IMG/VR virus record: IMGVR_UViG_2681813261_000028
Reading direction: 5' to 3' (one strand)
Source of the DNA: a virus
Lineage: Duplodnaviria > Heunggongvirae > Uroviricota > Caudoviricetes
Length of the DNA stretch: 9,554 bases
Shown one piece after another: positions 1 through 9,554 of this stretch. The notes under the pieces are model-generated. The model was not told where the DNA came from and searched no databases. It saw only the letters and a program-made list of their open reading frames with translations. The first letter of the stretch is position 1. Each line of letters starts with the position of its first letter. The translations under genes were made by a program, and so were the position numbers.

Positions 1-981
1 TTATAACGTCACTCCGCCTTTTAGTGGATTCAGAGCGACGGCATTTTGCAGATAGTCAGGCGCAAGGTGCGCATAGGCCATCGTCTGCTGAATGCTCGCA
101 TGTCCCAGAATCTGTTGCAGTGCGATTATATTGCCCCCATTCATCATGAAATGGCTTGCGAATGTATGCCGCAGGATGTGGGTTGCCTGATTGGGTGGTA
201 TATCAGGTTTCACTCTGCGTAAAATCCCGCAAAATTTCTCATAATCAACTTTGAATAATTTGGCGCTGGCCTCCTCTTTAACTTTTTTCTCCAGTTCCTC
301 AGAAATCGGCACGGTTCGCTTTTTACCGTTTTTGGTTTTCAGGAAGGTAACCCTGCAATTTGTAATCTGTGCTGGTTTTAGCGTGGCAACTTCCGTCCAT
401 CTTCCTCCAGTGCTCAGACATAAAAGCGCGACAAGTAAGTCATCACCAGCCAAAACATTTAACAGTTTTTCGATTTCTGCTTTTTCCAGGAACGTCATTT
501 CAGGGTTGGCCTCCGCCAGTGGCGGCAGTCCGTGAATTGGGTGTTGCCCGGAAAATTCATCCAATTGAATTAATTTTGTGAACATGCCGGATAATCTGTA
601 CATGTCACGGTTTATCGTTGCGGCACTGATACCATCACGTAGTCGCATGGAACGATAATCCATCAAAGCCCTTTTGCTCATCCTGCTCACTGGTATATCA
701 CCTATGCCGCTGATGGTTTTGAGTAGATGATTAAACTCTTTTGTTCCATGCTCGTGGTTTTGCCCGTGATATTTCCACCAGATGTCCAGCAACTCACTCA
801 AAGTCCGGCGGTCTGCTCGCTGGCCTCCCCATTCTTTCTGACTGGCATTGGCGATTGTGTATCGCTCAAATGCTAGTGCTTCAGCTTTTCTTTCGAATTT
901 CCTGCGGATGCGTTTTCCGTCGCGACCGCGAGGTCTAATGTCCACTTCATAGCGACCATCATCGAGCTTCTTAATTGCCAT
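1..981 (-). CDS. int: Tyrosine-type site-specific integrase (P2 Int-like)
   Basis: Minus-strand open frame ending at stop TAA (complement of 1..3). C-terminal catalytic region typical of tyrosine recombinases is visible (HILRHTFASHFMMNGG, ILGH, TMAYAHL). N-terminus MAIKKLDDGRYEV resembles P2/186-type integrases as recalled. ATG at 979..981 has GGAGGG 7 nt upstream; the ORF-track start at 1009..1011 (336 aa) has no Shine-Dalgarno, so 981 is preferred (326 aa). Confidence 0.9.
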   Translation of the reverse strand: MAIKKLDDGRYEVDIRPRGRDGKRIRRKFERKAEALAFERYTIANASQKEWGGQRADRRTLSELLDIWWKYHGQNHEHGTKEFNHLLKTISGIGDIPVSRMSKRALMDYRSMRLRDGISAATINRDMYRLSGMFTKLIQLDEFSGQHPIHGLPPLAEANPEMTFLEKAEIEKLLNVLAGDDLLVALLCLSTGGRWTEVATLKPAQITNCRVTFLKTKNGKKRTVPISEELEKKVKEEASAKLFKVDYEKFCGILRRVKPDIPPNQATHILRHTFASHFMMNGGNIIALQQILGHASIQQTMAYAHLAPDYLQNAVALNPLKGGVTL

Positions 982-1050
982 AAGAAAGCCCTCCGGCGCT
1001 GTATTCACCATCTTGGTAGCAAATGGTGAAAATGTAATCTTTATATAGAG

Positions 1051-1344
1051 TTAGCCAATCCTTTTCGCGGAGTGGTTGGACTCTGTTGACTCTGGCCCAA
1101 TGTGCGCGAGAGCCGGTGCGATTTGTCCTGCGTCCGGCGCGGTTTTATCTGTCATAAGCCATAGAGCATATTTTTGGAATGTGGGATGCATAGTGATTTT
1201 TAGCAAAGCTGTGCCACCGGGTTCAAAGTTTCCTCCTTCATATTTTTTAAGTGTGCTTAGCGGTAACTCTATGATTTCACAGAATTTTGATTGGCTTAGC
1301 CCTTCAGCCTCACGCAAGGCCTTAATCTTTTCGCTTAATTTCAT
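1051..1344 (-). CDS. C: Immunity repressor, small helix-turn-helix protein (P2 C-like)
   Basis: 97 aa minus-strand ORF, ATG at 1342..1344, stop TAA at 1051..1053. It lies directly upstream of int in the same orientation and divergent from the cox-like gene, as for C in P2. N-terminal HTH-like segment (SEKIKALREAEGLSQSKFCEI) and the segment LWLMTDKTAPDAGQIAPALAH resemble P2-family C repressors as recalled. No search run. Confidence 0.7.
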   Translation of the reverse strand: MKLSEKIKALREAEGLSQSKFCEIIELPLSTLKKYEGGNFEPGGTALLKITMHPTFQKYALWLMTDKTAPDAGQIAPALAHIGPESTESNHSAKRIG

Positions 1345-1465
1345 TTGACATGGTGCCTATATAGGGACTAAATTCCCTCAAAACTGGAACCTATATAGGT
1401 TCCATTGATTTGAGAATAAACCAGCGTCTAAACGGTTTTGAGTGGTTTAGAAAGGGCTGGATCCT
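1345..1465. promoter_or_regulatory. Divergent immunity switch region with palindromic putative operators
   Basis: 121 bp between divergent C and cox-like genes. Consensus -35 TTGACA at 1345..1350 with a weak -10 candidate TAAATT at 1369..1374 (18 bp spacer), oriented rightward. Palindromic 10-mer CCTATATAGG occurs twice (1356..1365 and 1390..1399); the second sits in a perfect 18-bp palindrome GGAACCTATATAGGTTCC (1386..1403). A further dyad AGGGA-CTAAAT-TCCCT lies at 1363..1378. Exact promoter and operator assignment is inference. Confidence 0.5.
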
Positions 1466-1753
1466 ATGAGGGTACCATATATGGACGCTGAAAATTATGT
1501 GATTCAGTATCCGCTTGATGCGGTTCATGTGGATAAATTTGCTGATTTATTAGGGAAGCCAAAGACAGCCGTCAGTGAAATGGTGAAGGCAAATAAATTA
1601 CCAATTATTGAATTGCGTGATCCTTGCAAACCGAAGGCTCGTGCCGGTGAAAAATGGGTTTTCATTCCTGAGTTTAATCGCGCTGTACGTGAGGCGTTTT
1701 ATAACCGACCGGTTGAACAGCGTGATGCATGGCTTTTGTGGATGGGGTTGTGA
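1466..1753 (+). CDS. cox: Cox-like excisionase/transcriptional regulator
   Basis: 95 aa plus-strand ORF, first gene of the rightward operon, divergent from C as in P2. Small size and C-terminal ...WLLWMGL resemble P2 Cox as recalled. Start is ambiguous: ATG 1466 (AAAGGG upstream) or ATG 1481 (GAGGG 8 nt upstream). Stop TGA at 1751..1753. Confidence 0.65.
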   Translation: MRVPYMDAENYVIQYPLDAVHVDKFADLLGKPKTAVSEMVKANKLPIIELRDPCKPKARAGEKWVFIPEFNRAVREAFYNRPVEQRDAWLLWMGL

Positions 1754-1755
1754 TT

Positions 1756-1926
1756 ATGAATGAGCCGCGTTGTATTGCTCAGTTATTGCGTAACGAAAGC
1801 CCTAGGGCGATTGACTTCACCATCACCCACGGGAAGGGTCGCAAGGGAATCATTATCCGCACCAAAAAACAGAGTCCGTTAAAAAAGGCTCTGACCTTTC
1901 TGAAAAGCCGGAGGGTCTGGAAATGA
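1756..1926 (+). CDS. Small basic hypothetical protein (position of P2 orf78)
   Basis: 56 aa from ATG 1756, 2 nt after the cox stop. Its stop TGA (1924..1926) overlaps the ATG of the next gene (ATGA at 1923..1926), suggesting translational coupling. The ORF track offers an alternative start at 1729 (65 aa). No recognisable motif. Confidence 0.4.
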   Translation: MNEPRCIAQLLRNESPRAIDFTITHGKGRKGIIIRTKKQSPLKKALTFLKSRRVWK

Positions 1927-2423
1927 CAGTGATGACGCTCAATCTCGTCGAAAAACAGCCAGCAGCTATGCGCCGGATAATTGGTAAGCATCTTGCCGTC
2001 CCTCGTTGGCAGGATACATGTGATTATTATAATCAGATGATGGAGCGCGAACGGCTAACAGTTTGCTTTCATGCGCAGTTAAAACAACGTCACGCAACGA
2101 TGCGTTTTGAAGAAATGAACGACGTCGAACGTGAACGGCTGGTTTGTGCAATTGATGAATTGCGTGGGGCATTCTCAAAACGCCGTCAGGTTGGCGCAAG
2201 TGAGTATGCATATATTAGTTTTTTAACAGTCAGTCAGCGTCGTACTTTATTTATGCATGCCGGATTGACTGAAAAAGAATTCAATCAGCCATACTGGCGA
2301 ATTAATGAAGAGTCATGTTACTGGCGTGATGCTTTATTCCGTGCATTACGTGAACTATTCAGTCTGTTTGAGTATGCACCGACAATTCTGACGTCGGTAA
2401 AACCAGAGCAATATTTGCATTAA
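1923..2423 (+). CDS. B: Replication protein B-like (P2 gpB family)
   Basis: 166 aa ORF, ATG 1923, stop TAA 2421..2423. Position between cox and A and the length match P2 gene B as recalled. No catalytic motif identifiable by eye; the call rests on synteny and size. Confidence 0.7.
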   Translation: MTVMTLNLVEKQPAAMRRIIGKHLAVPRWQDTCDYYNQMMERERLTVCFHAQLKQRHATMRFEEMNDVERERLVCAIDELRGAFSKRRQVGASEYAYISFLTVSQRRTLFMHAGLTEKEFNQPYWRINEESCYWRDALFRALRELFSLFEYAPTILTSVKPEQYLH

Positions 2424-2486
2424 ATAATTAACCAGAGTTTTTAACGCACTTAATTGTGCGGGGCTTCTTTTTGCCTGGAGAAAGTC

Positions 2487-2711
2487 ATGCATACAGTTTC
2501 TGAAAATCAGTGCGGTAAATACGCATTACTGCTGCAACAGGCCAGAACCGAAGCACAGGCCGACGCTGCGACGCGCTTTTCTTCTCATCTTGACGCCATG
2601 ATTCGCCATATCACAAAGGCGGAGTTATCCCGCGTGGAGATAGTCGAGCTGCTCAGTCAGGAGTCGGAAAAATTTCACAATATCGGATTGTCTCGCGGGG
2701 AGGTGCTTTGA
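2487..2711 (+). CDS. Hypothetical early-operon protein (position of P2 orf80)
   Basis: 74 aa from ATG 2487, with GGAG at 2477..2480 (6 nt spacer). The ORF-track start at 2454 is TTG with no Shine-Dalgarno. Stop TGA at 2709..2711 overlaps the next ATG (TGATG). Confidence 0.5.
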
Positions 2712-3010
2712 TGTCCTGTTCTCATTCAGTTGTATTACTGAATAACGCCTTAAAAATCGCCGTTATGAAAAATGGCGACTTGTCTCTTATTCAACTTTGT
2801 CTTGATAAAGAAAAACGCGACATCACTGAATCTGTTATCGCGATTTATCAGAATGAATTAAACCTCCTGTCTGATGTGGTCAATTTACTTGTTAAACGCG
2901 CTGTATTCCACAAGCAAATTTCCTCAGTGGATGAACTGACAAAATTAACGACAGAACTTGCCAGTTATTGCGCTGATGTATCCAGGAAACTTAACGATAA
3001 AAGGAGCTGA
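2711..3010 (+). CDS. Hypothetical early-operon protein (position of P2 orf81)
   Basis: 99 aa from ATG 2711..2713, overlapping the upstream stop. Stop TGA at 3008..3010. No recognisable domain by eye. Confidence 0.5.
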   Translation: MSCSHSVVLLNNALKIAVMKNGDLSLIQLCLDKEKRDITESVIAIYQNELNLLSDVVNLLVKRAVFHKQISSVDELTKLTTELASYCADVSRKLNDKRS

Positions 3011-3012
3011 TA

Positions 3013-3237
3013 ATGCCGGACAACATAGATTTTATTCAGGAACAACAGGCTGAATTACTGGAGCGCCAGATTAACGCGGCAAGGGTAAAACATTGCGGTG
3101 CTTCTGCGCTGGTTTGCGAAGAGTGTGACGCGCCAATTCCTGCTGCCCGTCGTGCGGCTTATCCGTCAGCCACGCGTTGTGTTTCCTGTCAGTCAGTCTT
3201 TGAAGCAAAAAACAAACATTACCGGAGAACGGCATGA
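3013..3237 (+). CDS. TraR/DksA-family C4 zinc-finger protein
   Basis: 74 aa. AAGGAG at 3001..3006, 6 nt before ATG 3013. Four cysteines in CxxC-(17)-CxxC arrangement (CEECDAPIPAARRAAYPSATRCVSC), typical of the DksA/TraR zinc finger. Its stop overlaps the next start (ATGA at 3234..3237). Confidence 0.75.
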   Translation: MPDNIDFIQEQQAELLERQINAARVKHCGASALVCEECDAPIPAARRAAYPSATRCVSCQSVFEAKNKHYRRTA

Positions 3238-3509
3238 GTATTCGTATTGAAATTGGCGAACGTTATGTCGTTACCAGTGACAGCTTCCAGTTTATTCTCC
3301 ACGAGAAAAAGAGAGCGGAAAGCGGTAAAAACGCCGGTCAGGAATGGCTGGCGGTGGTTGGTTATTACCCGAAATTAAGCCAGCTCGTTTCCGGCCTGAT
3401 GCATCACGATATTCTGACCGGAAGCGCAAAGTCTTTTGCTGATTTAAACGCGCAGGTTGAGCAACTCAGCAAGCGTTGTTCAGAGGCTTTTGGCTCATAT
3501 GGCCGTTAA
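3234..3509 (+). CDS. Hypothetical early-operon protein (position of P2 orf83)
   Basis: 91 aa, ATG 3234 with GGAG at 3224..3227. Stop TAA at 3507..3509, overlapping the start of gene A by 11 nt. Confidence 0.5.
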   Translation: MSIRIEIGERYVVTSDSFQFILHEKKRAESGKNAGQEWLAVVGYYPKLSQLVSGLMHHDILTGSAKSFADLNAQVEQLSKRCSEAFGSYGR

Positions 3510-5796
3510 AGCCTCCGGGCGTTTTGTCCCTCCGTCAGCATTTGCTGCAGGCACCGGTAAGGCGTTTACCGGTGCTTATGCATGGAACGCGCCACGCGAG
3601 GCTGTCGGGCGCGAAAGACCCCTTACACGTGACGAGATGCGTCAGGTGCAAGGTGTTTTATCCACGATTAACCGCCTGCCTTACTTTTTGCGCTCGCTGT
3701 TTACGTCACGCTATGACTACATCCGGCGCAATAAAAGCCCGGTGCACGGGTTTTATTTCCTCACATCCACTTTTCAGCGTCGTTTATGGCCGCGCATTGA
3801 GCGTGTGAATCAGCGCCATGAAATGAACACCGACGCGTCGATGCTGTTTCTGGCTGAGCGTGACCACTATGCGCGCCTGCCGGGAATGAATGACAAGGAG
3901 CTGAAAAAGTTTGCCGCCCGTATCTCATCGCAGCTTTTCATGATGTATGAGGAACTCAGCGATGCCTGGGTGGATGCGCATGGCGAAAAAGAATCGCTGT
4001 TTACGGATGAGGCGCAGGCTCACCTCTATGGTCATGTTGCTGGCGCTGCACGTGCTTTCAATATTTCCCCTCTCTACTGGAAAAAATACCGTAAAGGACA
4101 GATGACCACGAGGCAGGCATATTCTGCCATTGCCCGTCTGTTTAACGATGAGTGGTGGATTAGTCAGCTTAAAGGCCAGCGTATGCGCTGGCATGAGGCG
4201 TTACTGATTGCTGTCGGGGAGGTCAATAAAGACCGTTCTCCTTATGCCAGTAAACATGCCATTCGTGATGTGCGTGCACGCCGCCAGGCAAATCTGGAAT
4301 TTCTTAAATCGTGTGATCTCGAAAACAGGGAAACAGGCGAGCGCATCGACCTTATCAGTAAGGTGATGGGCAGTATTTCTAATCCTGAAATTCGCCGGAT
4401 GGAGCTGATGAACACCATTGCCGGTATTGAGCGTTACGCCGCCGCAGAAGGTGATGTGGGGATGTTTATCACGCTGACCGCGCCGTCAAAGTATCACCCG
4501 ACACGTCAGGTTGGAAAAGGCGAAAGTAAAACCGTCCAGCTAAATCACGGCTGGAACGATGAGGCATTTAATCCAAAGGATGCGCAGCGTTATCTCTGCC
4601 GTATCTGGAGCCTGATGCGCACGGCATTCAAGGATAATGATTTACAGGTCTACGGTTTGCGAGTCGTCGAGCCACACCACGACGGAACGCCGCACTGGCA
4701 TATGATGCTTTTTTGTAATCCACGCCAGCGTAACCAGATTATCGAAATCATGCGTCGCTACGCGCTCAAAGAGGATGGCGACGAAAGAGGAGCTGCGCGA
4801 AACCGTTTTCAGGCAAAACATCTTAATCGGGGCGGTGCTGCGGGGTATATCGCGAAATACATCTCAAAAAATATCGACGGCTATGCACTGGATGGGCAGC
4901 TCGATAACGATAGCGGCAGACCGCTGAAAGATACTGCCGCGGCTGTTACCGCATGGGCGTCAACGTGGCGCATTCCGCAATTTAAAACGGTTGGCCTGCC
5001 GACAATGGGGGCTTACCGTGAACTACGCAAATTGCCTCGCGGCGTCAGCATTGCTGATGAGTTTGACGAGCGCGTCGAGGCTGCACGCGCCGCCGCAGAC
5101 AGTGGTGATTTTGCGCTGTATATCAGCGCGCAGGGTGGGGCAAATGTCCCGCGCGATTGTCAGACTGTCAGGGTCGCCCGTAGTCCGTCGGATGAAGTTA
5201 ACGAGTACGAGGAAGAAGTCGAGAGAGTGGTCGGCATTTACGCGCCGCATCTCGGCGCGCGTCATATTCATATCACCAGAACGACGGACTGGCGCATTGT
5301 TCCGAAAGTGCCGGTCGTTGAGCCTTTGACTTTAAAAAGCGGCATCGCCGCGCCTCGGAGTCCTGTCAATAACTGTGGAAAGCTCACTGGTGGTGATACT
5401 TCGTTACCGGCTCCCACACCTTCTGAGCACGCCGCAGCAGTGCTTAATCTGGTAGATGACGGTGTTATCGAATGGAATGACCCGGAGGTTGTGAGGGCGC
5501 TCAGAGGTGCATTAAAACACGGACTGAGAAGACCAAACCGTCAGCAAAGAAACGGAAGCCCGTTAAAACCGCATGAAATAGCGCCATCGGCCAGACTGAC
5601 CCGGTCGGAACGAATGCAAATTACCCGTATCCGCGTTGACCTTGCTCAGAACGGTATCAGGCCGCAGCGATGGGAGCTTGAGGTGCTGGCGCGTGGGGCA
5701 ACCGTAAATTATGACGGGAAAAAATTCACTTACCCGCTCGCTGATGAGTGGTCGGGATTCTCAACAGTATTAGAGTCAAACTCAGTGAAGCGTTAA
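3499..5796 (+). CDS. A: Rolling-circle replication initiator / replication endonuclease (P2 gpA family, HUH superfamily)
   Basis: Long ORF, stop TAA 5794..5796. HUH metal-binding motif HWHMML at 4693..4710 and tandem-tyrosine motif YIAKY at 4846..4860, the two signatures of phiX174/P2-type initiators. ATG 3499 is preferred (765 aa) over the ORF-track TTG at 3457 (779 aa); the N-terminus then reads MAVKASGRFVPP. Confidence 0.9.
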   Translation: MAVKASGRFVPPSAFAAGTGKAFTGAYAWNAPREAVGRERPLTRDEMRQVQGVLSTINRLPYFLRSLFTSRYDYIRRNKSPVHGFYFLTSTFQRRLWPRIERVNQRHEMNTDASMLFLAERDHYARLPGMNDKELKKFAARISSQLFMMYEELSDAWVDAHGEKESLFTDEAQAHLYGHVAGAARAFNISPLYWKKYRKGQMTTRQAYSAIARLFNDEWWISQLKGQRMRWHEALLIAVGEVNKDRSPYASKHAIRDVRARRQANLEFLKSCDLENRETGERIDLISKVMGSISNPEIRRMELMNTIAGIERYAAAEGDVGMFITLTAPSKYHPTRQVGKGESKTVQLNHGWNDEAFNPKDAQRYLCRIWSLMRTAFKDNDLQVYGLRVVEPHHDGTPHWHMMLFCNPRQRNQIIEIMRRYALKEDGDERGAARNRFQAKHLNRGGAAGYIAKYISKNIDGYALDGQLDNDSGRPLKDTAAAVTAWASTWRIPQFKTVGLPTMGAYRELRKLPRGVSIADEFDERVEAARAAADSGDFALYISAQGGANVPRDCQTVRVARSPSDEVNEYEEEVERVVGIYAPHLGARHIHITRTTDWRIVPKVPVVEPLTLKSGIAAPRSPVNNCGKLTGGDTSLPAPTPSEHAAAVLNLVDDGVIEWNDPEVVRALRGALKHGLRRPNRQQRNGSPLKPHEIAPSARLTRSERMQITRIRVDLAQNGIRPQRWELEVLARGATVNYDGKKFTYPLADEWSGFSTVLESNSVKR

Positions 5797-5882
5797 CTCA
5801 ATAAATATGAGTTTATAAGTTAGGCCTCGAGATTTTGTAGAAAGGGATGTATACTGAGTATCGTATAGATTTGGAGTGAGTG

Positions 5883-6905
5883 ATGACTGTAAAGGTGATA
5901 GACCTTTTTTGTGGTGCTGGCGGATTAACTCATGGTTTGCAGCTTGCGGGGCTTGATGTCGTTGCAGGCATTGACCTTGAGGGGGAATGTAGGTTTCCCT
6001 ATGAAAGAAACAATAAATCTAAGTTTATTGAGCAAGATATCGCTAAAGTAACAAAAGAGGAACTGCTGAGGCTTTATGGTGATGCGTCTGTAAAAGTATT
6101 GGCAGGATGCGCACCTTGCCAACCTTTTTCAAAATATACTCAAGGAAAAGATAAGGCTGATGATAAAAAATGGCCTCTTCTTTATGAGTTCGAACGTTTA
6201 ATTCGCGAAGTATCTCCAGAAATCGTAACAATGGAGAACGTTCCTGATGTAACTAAACATAAAGTTTATAATGATTTTTATAATTCATTGTTAAAGTTGG
6301 GCTATTATGTTTGGGCGTCTAAGATTGATTGTGTCGAATATGGAATCCCACAAAACCGTTCCCGTCATGTATTGTTGGCCTCAAAATTGGGGGCGATTGA
6401 GTTAGTAAAACGTGACGATGTTATTTTGAAAACAGTTAGAGATGCAATAGGAAATCTTCCTCCATTAGAAGATGGCCAAACAGATCCAAATGATATATTA
6501 CATAGAGCCAGTAAATTAAATCCGATTAATAAAAAAAGAATTATACACTCTGTTCCTGGTGGTACATGGAAGGACTGGCCGAAAGAGTTGGTTGCCGCTT
6601 GTCATATGAAATCCAGCGGTAAAGGGTATGCTAGTGTATATGGGCGCATGTCTTGGGATAAGCCAAGTCCAACAATTACAACTCTTTGTTATGGTTTCGG
6701 GAATGGGCGTTTTGGACATCCAGAACAGCATAGAGCGATTTCTCTTAGAGAGGCTGCTTTATTGCAAACTTTCCCGATGGATTATATTTTTGTAGAAGAC
6801 AAAAACAAGTTTGTTATAAGAAGTATTGGGAAAATGATAGGTAATGCTGTTCCTGTGGAACTAGGAAAAGCAATTGGGCAATCAATCAAGAACCATTTAG
6901 AATGA
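5883..6905 (+). CDS. DNA (cytosine-5)-methyltransferase
   Basis: 340 aa from ATG 5883 (GGAG at 5873..5876); the ORF-track start 5880 is GTG. Canonical C5-MTase motifs are in order: motif I DLFCGAGG, motif IV catalytic GCAPCQPFS, motif VI TMENVPDV, motif VIII QNRSRHVLLA, motif X GNAVPVELG. The variable region between VIII and X is short, suggesting a short recognition site. Stop TGA at 6903..6905. Confidence 0.9.
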   Translation: MTVKVIDLFCGAGGLTHGLQLAGLDVVAGIDLEGECRFPYERNNKSKFIEQDIAKVTKEELLRLYGDASVKVLAGCAPCQPFSKYTQGKDKADDKKWPLLYEFERLIREVSPEIVTMENVPDVTKHKVYNDFYNSLLKLGYYVWASKIDCVEYGIPQNRSRHVLLASKLGAIELVKRDDVILKTVRDAIGNLPPLEDGQTDPNDILHRASKLNPINKKRIIHSVPGGTWKDWPKELVAACHMKSSGKGYASVYGRMSWDKPSPTITTLCYGFGNGRFGHPEQHRAISLREAALLQTFPMDYIFVEDKNKFVIRSIGKMIGNAVPVELGKAIGQSIKNHLE

Positions 6906-6909
6906 TAAA

Positions 6910-6930
6910 ATGGCCTGCTTTACAGGCCTT
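6910..6930. terminator. Putative bidirectional intrinsic terminator between convergent genes
   Basis: Perfect 6-bp stem GGCCTG (6912..6917) / CAGGCC (6923..6928) with 5-nt loop CTTTA. It sits in the 29-bp gap between the MTase stop (6905) and the minus-strand gene stop (6935), with A/T-rich flanks on both sides. The stem is short, so strength is uncertain. Confidence 0.45.
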
Positions 6931-6934
6931 ATAA

Positions 6935-7181
6935 CTATTGTTCTAAATATTCATTATTATTTATATAGTGCTCTATATTATTCACGATAGCATCAAGATA
7001 GGCGATTACTTCTAATGAAATATTCTCTAAGTCCTGATATGAAACATTTTTTCCAATCTCAGCAAATGATACATTGCCATGAGATAAATCATTACGATGT
7101 TGTTTAACAGTGGCTAATTTTTCACCATGTTTAGTGTGAGTGTAATCGGAATGTGTAGAAAAACCATATATTTTCGATTTT
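6935..7181 (-). CDS. C-terminal segment of a HEPN-like protein (Rx4H motif); start lost in N-run
   Basis: Minus-strand frame open from the N-run (7182) to stop TAG (complement of 6935..6937), 82 codons. Contains ...VKQHRNDLSHGNVSF... with R at 7094..7096 and H at 7079..7081, matching the HEPN RNase motif R-x4-H. This frame differs from the upstream segment 7215..7652, so both are probably one gene whose frame is hidden by the gap. Confidence 0.5.
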
Positions 7182-7652
7182 NNNNNNNNNNNNNNNNNNN
7201 NNNNNNNNNNNNNNTTTTTCTTTGATTTCCTCTCTATCAATATTTCCTGAGAATATTTTCTTTTTGTTGAACGTGCCATAAGATATACCGCAAGATATAC
7301 CTTTGGTAAGGTGATTAACTAAACTTTCAACATTTACAGATTCATTTTTTAATCTTTTTAATATTTCTGACCTGAGATTTTTCCTGAGTTTGTCAAATTC
7401 TACGTTTCTATCATAAATAGTCTCATGAATAAGGCAGATAGCTTCTCTCATTGTTGATTCAATGAGGTTATATAACAGTATATATACTGCTCCCTTTAGA
7501 GTTTTTCGTGATTGAGCAGTAATGGAGAACTTATGTTCTTTATCATCAGCTGATATCAGTTCTGCACCGGCATACTCAATAAATTTCAAAAGATCCAAAT
7601 AGGCCAAGATCTCTCCTGACCTTTCGTCAAAATCCTCACGAAAACGATCCAT
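7131..7652 (-). CDS. N-terminal segment of the DUF262-partner protein (same gene as 6935..7181 if the gap hides a frame change)
   Basis: ATG at 7650..7652 (complement) lies 1 nt after the DUF262 stop (TAAcATG), indicating an operon. Read literally through the 33 N it runs to a stop at 7131 (173 aa); only 7215..7652 is real sequence. The protein looks helical and charged, with no catalytic motif upstream of the gap. Confidence 0.6.
   Translation of the reverse strand: MDRFREDFDERSGEILAYLDLLKFIEYAGAELISADDKEHKFSITAQSRKTLKGAVYILLYNLIESTMREAICLIHETIYDRNVEFDKLRKNLRSEILKRLKNESVNVESLVNHLTKGISCGISYGTFNKKKIFSGNIDREEIKEKXXXXXXXXXXXKIENIWFFYTFRLHSH
7182..7214. other. Run of 33 N (assembly gap or masked bases)
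   Basis: 33 consecutive n characters seen directly in the sequence, inside the small minus-strand gene. Confidence 0.97.
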
Positions 7653-7653
7653 G

Positions 7654-8796
7654 TTAATCCTCTAATAATTTATCCCGAACATATTCAATTCGTTCAATTA
7701 CCTTCACGCGACTATTAGCTCCGTCGGAAGTGGTCAATCGTTTGAATTCTTCTGAGCTTAGCCAATCTAAGTTCTTGGGAACAAGGTCAGGGACTTCACG
7801 TAATGCAAGTGCTGCGCCAACAGCGAGAGATTCGAATCTAACTCGAGGTGTAGATTTTGCAGTAATAGTTTTCTTGAATCCTGCTGGGAAATAGTTTTCA
7901 ACAAAAGATAGAACATTAGCAAACTCTTGTTTCATTGAGTTTTGTTTAGTTTCGTCTATATCTCGATTTTCTGACATATAGTCATTTAGAAAATCCCGTA
8001 CGGAATGATCAAAGTTCTTGTACTTATCTACGTAGGCAAAGAATCTTAATGTAAATTCTAACCGTTCATCTCGTTTTTCTTTAGTCTGAGATAAAGGTGC
8101 TAATTCTTTAAATTTAGGTATTGTTGAGCATGGCTTAATAACCTGTGTATATAAATTTGTTGAACCAAGTTCTGATCCTTTACGGACTTCCATATCTTTC
8201 AATATATCGCTGCCAGAGTTAATACGCTCAAAAAGATCTCTACGGGTTTCTTCATTGCATTTAGAACTCAATTCTATAACGCGGACAGGAATTCTCATGA
8301 AACGACGTTGACGTGATAATGGTAAATCTTGGAATTTGAAACCATTAAGGACGTCTAAAGATTTCAGGTCTTGTAAAACTAATTCATTTTGGATAAAAGC
8401 GTGTATAGTCCTAACTCGTTGTGAGCCATCAACAATCTCAATTCGCCCATCTAAATCGGGATCTTCGGAGAGAACATCTGCTATAAATATATATGGTATA
8501 GGAAAACCCAAAATCAAAGACTCTATCAATTTTGATTGTCTTTTTTCACTCCAAACAAAATCCCTTTGATAATCAGGAACAAAGAGTTCGTTAGTATCAT
8601 CCTCTAATCCGTTATGATACTTATTAACTAATAACTCAACGGTAAATTCTTTGGTCTCAAAATCCACATCCTTTTGCTCAGCACGAATTTGCTCTTCAGC
8701 GTTTTGCTTTATCACCTCTAGCTGAGCAAGCAACTCTGCTCTTTTCTTGGCATTATCTTCATTTTCTAGTTGAGATTTTAAATCAATAATGTCCAT
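7654..8796 (-). CDS. DUF262-domain protein (ParB/Srx-like NTPase fold, GmrSD N-terminal-domain family) without a nuclease domain
   Basis: 380 aa from ATG 8794..8796 (AAGGGA 8 nt upstream on the minus strand); the ORF-track start 8814 is TTG. DUF262 signature motifs are present: VPDYQRDFVW and IVDGSQRVRTI (the DGQQR box). No HNH/DUF1524-type His-rich motif in the C-terminal third. Stop TAA at 7654..7656. Confidence 0.85.
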   Translation of the reverse strand: MDIIDLKSQLENEDNAKKRAELLAQLEVIKQNAEEQIRAEQKDVDFETKEFTVELLVNKYHNGLEDDTNELFVPDYQRDFVWSEKRQSKLIESLILGFPIPYIFIADVLSEDPDLDGRIEIVDGSQRVRTIHAFIQNELVLQDLKSLDVLNGFKFQDLPLSRQRRFMRIPVRVIELSSKCNEETRRDLFERINSGSDILKDMEVRKGSELGSTNLYTQVIKPCSTIPKFKELAPLSQTKEKRDERLEFTLRFFAYVDKYKNFDHSVRDFLNDYMSENRDIDETKQNSMKQEFANVLSFVENYFPAGFKKTITAKSTPRVRFESLAVGAALALREVPDLVPKNLDWLSSEEFKRLTTSDGANSRVKVIERIEYVRDKLLED

Positions 8797-8981
8797 GTCT
8801 AGTTCCCTTAACAAGTGTTAAAAATTGAAGCGGATAGCATACCGCATAGATCATGAAAAATGCCATCATGTGCATGGATTTGCATGCGTCAGAAGTCGCT
8901 TTTATTGTTAGTTATCACTAGCGCTGGCGTGCTCTTGGAGTGTTCATGCAACTGCATTAAAACCGCCCCATGAAGCGGGCG

Positions 8982-9000
8982 GGCGAGGCGGGGAAAGCAC
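8982..9000. other. Phage cohesive-end (cos) site, P2-type 19-mer
   Basis: GGCGAGGCGGGGAAAGCAC at 8982..9000 matches the 19-nt cohesive end of P2 as I recall it (from memory, not searched). It lies in a GC-rich non-coding stretch between the cargo island and the 3' end of the portal-like gene, where cos sits in a P2 prophage. Confidence 0.6.
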
Positions 9001-9140
9001 TGCGCGCTGGCGGTGGTGCTGATTTTATTTTCCAGCGTCTCAGCGCGTCGTGACGGCGCTTAGTCTGCCCGTTGGGCGTTGGTGTGTCTGCGGGATTTTT
9101 TGTGCGGTGATGAGCGTGTGAGGGCGTGATGGCGGGGTGT

Positions 9141-9162
9141 AAAAAAGCCGCCCGCAGGCGGC
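9141..9162 (-). terminator. Intrinsic terminator downstream of the portal-like gene
   Basis: On the minus strand, 5 nt after the stop at 9168..9170: stem GCCGCC/GGCGGC (9147..9152 and 9157..9162) with 4-nt loop, followed by a T6 tract (A6 on the plus strand at 9141..9146). Confidence 0.65.
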
Positions 9163-9167
9163 GATGT

Positions 9168-9554
9168 TCAGCCGTTGTCAGTGTCCAGTGAGTAGTTTTT
9201 AAAGCGGATGACCTCCTGACCGAGCCAGCCGTTTATCTCGCGGATCCTGTCCTGTAACGGGATAAGCTCATTGCGGACAAAGACCTTTGCCACTTTCTCA
9301 ATATCACCCAGCGACCCGACGTTCTCCGGCTTGCCCCCCATCAACTGAAAGGGGATGCGGTGCGCGTCCAGCAGGTCAGCGGCGCTGGCTTTTTTGATAT
9401 TAAAAAAATCGTCCTTCGTTGCCACTTCACTGAGCGGGATAATTTTAATGCCGTCGGCTTTCCCCTGTGGGGCATAGAGAAACAGATTTTTAAAGTTATT
9501 GCGGCCTTTGCAAAATGGCATCTGAATCGATCGCAGTTTGGCATTCGAATCGAT
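9168..9554 (-). CDS. Q: Portal-like capsid protein, C-terminal part (5' end outside the window)
   Basis: Minus-strand frame is open from the window edge (9554) to stop TGA (complement of 9168..9170); no stop between 9522 and 9554, so the ORF-track Met at 9521 is internal. Assignment to P2 gpQ rests on position (leftward gene with its 3' end next to cos) and is unverified. Confidence 0.55.
   Translation of the reverse strand: MDSNAKLRSIQMPFCKGRNNFKNLFLYAPQGKADGIKIIPLSEVATKDDFFNIKKASAADLLDAHRIPFQLMGGKPENVGSLGDIEKVAKVFVRNELIPLQDRIREINGWLGQEVIRFKNYSLDTDNG

Follow-up and report, generated by a model that had tools for sequence, protein, structure and literature searches.

Organization of the locus

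The window (the whole 9,554-nt stretch of DNA analysed) is identical to the corresponding part of scaffold CXEK01000038.1 (28,750 bp; draft assembly GCA_001248175.1) and shares with it the same 33 N, hence the N's were not introduced when the window was cut out. It harbours three genes that are located in a P2-like prophage integrated next to cpxP-cpxRA and lie between its replication endonuclease gene (gpA) and its portal gene. The only cargo ORFs found between gpA and the portal gene are those coding for a methylase, a HEPN protein and a DUF262 protein. The features of the cassette referred to below are as follows:

5883..6905, plus strand: Dcm-type C5-cytosine DNA methyltransferase of 340 aa, encoded convergently to the HEPN gene
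6912..6928, minus strand: hairpin GGCCTG-TAAAG-CAGGCC with a T-rich tail, terminator-like by a consensus-scan match only
6935..7652, minus strand: MAE_28990/MAE_18760-family HEPN gene, CDS complement(join(6935..7177,7215..7652)), 681 nt, 226 aa
7079..7096, minus strand: Rx4H catalytic motif R174-N-D-L-S-H179 of the HEPN domain, from alignment and sequence
7160..7168, minus strand: Y150-G-F152 motif downstream of the gap, invariant in the alignment of HEPN homologues
7178..7181, no strand: TTTT with which the left flank ends, equal to 7215..7218 on the right flank and redundant, the contig ends overlapping
7182..7214, no strand: 33 consecutive N that stand for a scaffolding gap; its length is overestimated, as the flanks are really -4 bases apart
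7242..7253, minus strand: F134-S-G-N137 motif upstream of the gap, invariant in the same alignment
7654..8796, minus strand: NsnA-like DUF262 gene (ParB-like, GmrSD_N), 380 aa from ATG at 8796, with the ORF open to TTG at 8814

The GC content of the three cargo genes (5797..8814) is 31-39% versus 49-53% in the flanking P2-like backbone, which is consistent with a foreign origin of the cassette. Presumably, the P2-like prophage carries the cassette as cargo in its gpA-portal defence hotspot.

The product of the methylase gene matches PF00145 (3.4e-58), TIGR00675 (1.5e-37) and the PADLOC model MTase_II (6.7e-89). The DUF262 protein, in which the motifs YQRDFVW and DGSQR are found, matches PF03235 (GmrSD_N; 8.2e-26, residues 64-212) and, over its full length, the PADLOC model NsnA (1.7e-54, residues 17-380); it also matches PD-T4-2_A with a score below that of NsnA (2.5e-35, residues 79-378 on profile positions 55-356 of 363) and, weakly, the PADLOC REase_II model (9.4e-06). 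On the minus strand, the stop codon of the DUF262 gene and the start codon of the HEPN gene are separated by a single base (TAA-C-ATG, 7650..7656), an arrangement that suggests translational coupling of the two genes. The stop codons of the convergent methylase and HEPN genes are separated by a 29-base spacer (6906..6934) holding the hairpin at 6912..6928, which may be a bidirectional terminator; the two genes of many related loci, unlike those here, overlap by 3 bases.

Within the portal gene (gpQ), the window departs from the finished genome HE616528.1, with which it is otherwise identical, over its final 45 bases (9510..9554). These match the edge of an IS21-family element, which in a related locus (L008) is sited elsewhere in the portal gene; they include an internal repeat, TGGCATyyGAATCGAT, present twice. 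Since this element interrupts the portal gene, the prophage of the isolate is defective. Scaffold CXEK01000038.1 ends one base past the end of the window and includes 46 nt of the IS. No record of the chimeric portal/IS ORF (9168..9521) was found in the protein collection searched, and the portal-IS junction was not found in viral_contigs. As for the related prophages, IS630-type (DDE_3) insertions replace the portal side and the integrase side in L006 and L009 (GCA_031665775.1 and GCA_031665565.1), while in L005 a large deletion fuses gpA to the integrase gene; the cassette is retained in several lineages in which the prophage decays.

Literal reading of the sequence around the N run

The 33 bases at 7182..7214 are the sole N run of the window. 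When the sequence is read as it stands, the minus-strand ORF starting with ATG at 7652 crosses the N's as 11 X codons and continues for 16 codons (KIENIWFFYTFRLHSH) up to a stop at 7131..7133, while a second minus-strand frame, open from 7279 to 6935, contains RNDLSH, the Rx4H motif. Two ORFs, 7131..7652 and 6935..7279, are listed around the gap on this strand. The original prediction gave the position of the N's, the literal stop at 7131 and the extent of the Rx4H frame to 6935, and every one of these coordinates proved right.

The gene calls in CXEK01000038.1 likewise split the HEPN gene (1904..2621 of that record, our L092, equal to 6935..7652 of the window) into products of 173 aa and 81 aa, which is wrong according to the present analysis. 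The 173-aa product with its 11 X residues can be retrieved from the protein collection by its literal sequence; the artefact has therefore spread into databases.

Length of the gap

A megablast search with positions 6900..7700 against 5,426 complete E. coli genomes yielded matches in nine chromosomes, all of which carry an intact 681-nt CDS annotated as “MAE_28990/MAE_18760 family HEPN-like nuclease”; at the DNA level, the methylase gene of the cassette is carried, among complete E. coli genomes, by the same nine only. The matching span in these chromosomes is 764 bases as against 801 in the query, a difference of 37 and not 33. The left flank of the gap ends with CGATTTT and the right flank starts with TTTTTCTTTG, whereas the ungapped relatives read CGATTTTTCTTTG.

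Nine loci encoding the exact joined protein were retrieved for comparison. One of them, the finished genome HE616528.1 (L007), is identical to the window over positions 1..7181 (7181/7181) and 7215..9509 (2295/2295). In this genome the left alignment ends at 10435 and the right one starts at 10438, i.e. the flanks overlap by 4 bases (TTTT), and therefore the true length of the gap is -4, not +33. The junction point in the sequence of HE616528.1 lies between CGATTTTT and CTTTG, and the ungapped junction CGATTTTTCTTTG is also present in L001, L002 and the eight other loci encoding the exact protein.

The same value is reached by removing the N's together with 0 to 7 further bases in turn. Only the removal of 1, 4 or 7 additional bases opens a long frame. 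With 4, a 226-aa protein is obtained whose junction (EEIKEK/SKIYGF) is the one seen in the orthologues and which has an exact match in a collection of 15 billion proteins, where it is found in 678 contigs under the name [quoted passage not shown]; the protein obtained with 1 has no exact match in that collection. All gap models from N+0 to N+7 other than N+4 were rejected, N+4 being the only one that both agrees with the orthologues and is on record. The reading of the 33 N as 11 codons was rejected as well, the out-of-frame tail of 16 residues being present in no homologue.

The original prediction had offered, as one possibility, that the N length is arbitrary and that the gene is a single ORF of roughly 240 aa. 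Both the arbitrary length and the single ORF stand; the size does not, since with a true gap of -4 rather than +33 bases the protein has 226 aa. Nor can the gene still be regarded, as it was then, as the least certain part of the window, because the exact joined protein is a catalogued MULTISPECIES protein of Enterobacteriaceae.

Evidence for one intact HEPN gene

The joined HEPN protein matches PF18737 (HEPN_MAE_28990) with 5.8e-29 and 102.2 bits (cut-off 26.8), residues 5-223 being aligned to profile positions 6-211 of 211; a second Pfam match is to PF18735 (RiboL-PSP-HEPN; 8e-09, 36 bits). No PADLOC model, PD-T4-2_B included, was matched by this protein at E <= 0.1, and neither the HEPN nor the DUF262 protein matched any NCBIfam model. 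In an alignment of 25 HEPN homologues (A1), with identity down to 34%, residues R174, N175, D176, L177, H179 and G180 are nearly invariant, R174 and H179 being conserved in at least 90% of the sequences. The profile match and the alignment bear out the earlier description of the gene as HEPN-like and of its Rx4H motif.

The comparison with orthologues that the original prediction had called for gave a uniform picture. Among 112 homologues, the untruncated members (those neither annotated as truncated nor evidently so) are all single ORFs of 216-241 aa, which cover most or all of the joined protein. The spacing between the FSGN and YGF motifs, which bracket the gap, is constant across the 25 sequences of the alignment, with no indel between them; homologues with identities as low as 34% proved to be single ORFs of 216-232 aa, none having an indel at the junction. 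The dN/dS values calculated against three relatives in one frame are low on both sides of the junction (0.07-0.11 for codons 1-146 and 0.03-0.09 for codons 147-226). The joined protein has the alpha-helical fold of HEPN domains, and its AF2 model (pLDDT 90.4, pTM 0.86) is one compact domain, in which residues 146/147, where the two parts meet, lie within the helix formed by residues 140-150. Judged by identical and related genomes, the HEPN gene is to be regarded as intact and as a single ORF, and the alternative of a frameshifted or split gene, also raised originally, is rejected as far as comparison can show.

Origin of the apparent frameshift

The apparent frameshift is an ordinary assembly artefact and not a broken gene. 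The N run misstates the gap by 37 bases, a number not divisible by three; therefore the literal translation changes frame at the N's and the gene looks split. In the short-read draft represented by CXEK01000038.1, two contig ends overlapping by TTTT are joined through 33 N. Scaffolders use read pairs to estimate how many N's to put into a gap, whereas gap closers merge two ends only above a minimum overlap. Presumably, then, read pairs linked the contigs, with the size of the gap overestimated, while an overlap of 4 bases would have been left unmerged. The contig break itself probably resulted from poor coverage at the most AT-rich spot of the window, as judged by base composition: the GC minimum of the window coincides with the gap (27-28% in 300-base windows, 29% in the 120 flanking bases).

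Many “partial” fragments of the same gene are found in drafts of Salmonella, Shigella and Klebsiella (protein clusters of P0001/P0002; P0017, P0052 and P0067). Some of them end at residues 57, 61, 70, 72, 73, 82, 129, 152 and 218/219, others start at residues 87, 103 and 130, and two clusters led by such fragments comprise 102 and 63 member sequences. None of the partial fragments from other drafts is broken at codons 146/147 (their breaks fall at 57-82, 103, 129/130, 152 and 218/219). It thus seems that short-read assemblies often break within the AT-rich HEPN gene, at various codons.

The sole non-ordinary reading of the gap left is that the isolate truly carries an insertion inactivating the effector, which is unlikely. 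Such an insertion might be an IS element that entered the HEPN gene with a 4-bp target-site duplication (TTTT) and whose repeat was collapsed to N's, so that the effector is genuinely disrupted. The exact 4-base overlap of the flanks, as seen against the finished genome, is what a 4-bp duplication would give, an extra IS21-family copy absent from HE616528.1 lies only 2.3 kb away in the portal gene, and IS630-type and IS21-type insertions occur in the same prophage of related loci. However, no foreign base is present at either edge of the N run, the flanks matching HE616528.1 to the last base, whereas the scaffold end preserves 46 nt of a real IS junction, and hence true IS junctions in this assembly retain IS sequence at the contig edge. 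Furthermore, 33 N are far below the length of any IS, ordinary short-insert read pairs would not bridge an element of 0.8-2.5 kb and yield a gap estimate of 33, and the insertion would have to be at a site where none of the ungapped relatives examined has one. An IS in the HEPN gene is accordingly considered very improbable. Alternatively, the length of the gap might be about right, the N's concealing a real 37-base insertion, e.g. a tandem duplication, or another small indel that turned the gene into a pseudogene. The 33 bases are indeed hidden, as many as 34 different 37-base tandem duplications fit the visible flanks, and the site falls within a T-rich tract; yet HE616528.1 shows 100% identity to the remainder of the 9.5 kb, the FSGN-YGF spacing is the same in all aligned homologues, and the part downstream of the gap is under strong purifying selection. 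In addition, a duplication of 37 bases, being shorter than the usual assembly k-mers, would not by itself break an assembly, and the odds are heavily against a small insertion of this kind.

The remaining alternative, i.e. two genes, one encoding an N-terminal protein of 146-173 aa and the other an independent C-terminal protein of ~81-114 aa with the HEPN motif, follows from the annotation of the source record and from the two listed ORFs. The comparative data refute it, and its probability is close to nil: the 173-aa product consists in its last part of 11 X and a tail for which the homologues have no counterpart, PF18737 covers the joined protein in one stretch, the full-length homologues are all single ORFs and the AF2 model shows no division into two domains. 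The best explanation of the locus as a whole is therefore a mis-sized scaffolding gap in an intact HEPN gene, the product of which would be the RNase effector of a DUF262 two-gene module; a probability of about 0.88 is assigned to this reading.

The result is above all a point of data quality: a gap mis-sized by 37 bases gave an intact gene the appearance of a frameshift, and two bogus products, one of 173 aa with 11 X and one of 81 aa, are now in the protein databases. Any count of intact versus decayed defence genes in IS-rich lineages available as drafts only would get this HEPN gene wrong.

Distribution of the DUF262-HEPN pair

A scan of species-representative genomes revealed 446 stretches encoding a relative of the HEPN protein, mostly in cyanobacteria and Gammaproteobacteria, and the best 80 of these loci were examined. 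All 80 have, immediately upstream of the HEPN gene and on the same strand, a DUF262 gene, the spacing between the two usually being -3 to +7 bases. A Dcm-type methylase gene is found in 37 of the 80, being convergent with and abutting the HEPN gene in 34 and lying 1.1-2.2 kb off in 3, while the other 43 of these best 80 loci have no linked methylase of this type; the neighbours sampled in methylase-less loci are housekeeping genes (those for aconitase B, SecA, ClpB, CobN and CarB). When mapped on the HEPN tree, methylase linkage requires 8 Fitch changes, while 500 shuffles gave a mean of 27 and a minimum of 18. The linkage is clade-bound and stable within clades, and the HEPN protein of the window falls in a methylase-linked clade.

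Within one cyanobacterial clade lacking the methylase, the DUF262-HEPN pair is preceded on the same strand by an ORF of ~876-976 aa (loci L031, L038, L039, L041, L044, L050, L053, L063, L066, L070-L072 and L084). Pfam scans of three of these loci (L031, L038 and L053) identified the product of this ORF as aconitase B, and the aconitase B-DUF262-HEPN arrangement seems to occupy a conserved site in the chromosome and not to be part of a mobile island.

Proposed function and comparison with known systems

Judging by domain content and gene order, the HEPN protein would act as the RNase effector of a two-gene module, and its upstream partner, an NsnA-like DUF262 protein (ParB-type NTPase, DNA-binding), may serve as an NTP-dependent DNA sensor. 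Such a role of DUF262 has been proposed for NsnA and shown for GmrSD, BrxU and SspE (PMC12065111, PMC10952713). In the methylase-linked clade, m5C marking of resident (self) DNA could plausibly silence the DUF262-HEPN pair on self. It is tentatively suggested, though with considerable doubt, that the pairs of this clade constitute a restriction-modification-like defence in which DUF262 reads the m5C status of DNA and licenses a HEPN RNase instead of a DNase, i.e. a methylation-gated form of abortive infection. This reading stands independently of the gap. The cassette is a reasonable, though not new, experimental target, the mechanism being a proposal only.

The MAE_28990 HEPN family was described by Anantharaman et al. 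(2013) as sharing an operon with genes for a ParB/DUF262 protein and a DNA methylase (PMC3710099, Table 1). The cassette has this very composition: it shares with the family the full-length PF18737 domain, the Rx4H motif, the upstream DUF262 gene and the adjacent C5 methylase gene, and is a member of it. In the literature searched, no activity has been shown for the HEPN_MAE_28990 family, which is described computationally only.

A cassette with the same three domains at the same P2-like site, between the replication endonuclease and portal genes, was listed by Rousset et al. (2022), including the methylase WP_001697730, which differs from that of the window at 3 aa (PMC9122126, supplementary file 6). 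The prophage analysed here differs in being defective, its portal gene carrying an IS21-family element. The cassette does not figure among the 83 most abundant hotspot systems, nor does that study list a test of it (PMC9122126); it is not mentioned in a 2026 paper on P2/P4 hotspots either (PMC13586616). The methylase sequence printed for systems #17 and #40 (“HATPase_c_3” with “DNA_methylase”, and EcoT38I) in supplementary file 6 of PMC9122126 is identical to WP_001697730. The printed sequence is that of an MMseqs2 cluster representative and not the true sequence of these systems, and is therefore easily misread as a shared methylase; a methylase common to EcoT38I and the RM-like HATPase_c_3 system was thus rejected. 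The m5C methylase, NsnA-like DUF262 and MAE_28990 HEPN cassette of the P2 gpA-portal hotspot is, in other words, already described and catalogued.

As in type II restriction-modification systems, a methyltransferase is present. With Menshen (NsnABC; Millman et al., 2022; PMC12065111) the cassette shares a DUF262 protein that is NsnA-like over its full length, and the logic of a sensor combined with an RNase effector fits; however, it has neither the NsnB ABC ATPase nor NsnC, and a small HEPN gene directly follows the DUF262 gene instead. Membership in Menshen was rejected, NsnB and NsnC being absent between gpA and the portal gene. The type IV-like enzymes GmrSD, BrxU and SspE resemble the DUF262 protein in having, at the N-terminus, a DUF262 (GmrSD_N) domain in which QR and DGxQR motifs occur, but the DUF1524 His-Me nuclease domain of these enzymes is replaced here by a separate HEPN protein, and a linked cytosine methylase would be unusual for modification-dependent enzymes. 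Pfam searches revealed no DUF1524 in the DUF262 protein or in the locus, and assignment to GmrSD was likewise rejected.

The closest resemblance among tested systems is to PD-T4-2, described by Vassallo et al. (2022) as “DUF262, HEPN”, a system of two CDS from E. coli which protects against T4 (PMC9519451). Both are two-gene modules with DUF262 followed by HEPN, and the DUF262 protein of the cassette matches PD-T4-2_A over nearly the full length. The HEPN proteins differ: that of PD-T4-2 is assigned to PF18735, whereas that of the cassette belongs primarily to PF18737 (102 bits, as against 36 bits for PF18735 in second place) and has no match to PD-T4-2_B. The ORFs of PD-T4-2 span 1.54 kb, compared to 1.83 kb for the DUF262-HEPN pair of the cassette, and its two components include no methylase, in contrast to the linked m5C methylase found here. 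The cassette is a known relative of PD-T4-2, which is the nearest tested system.
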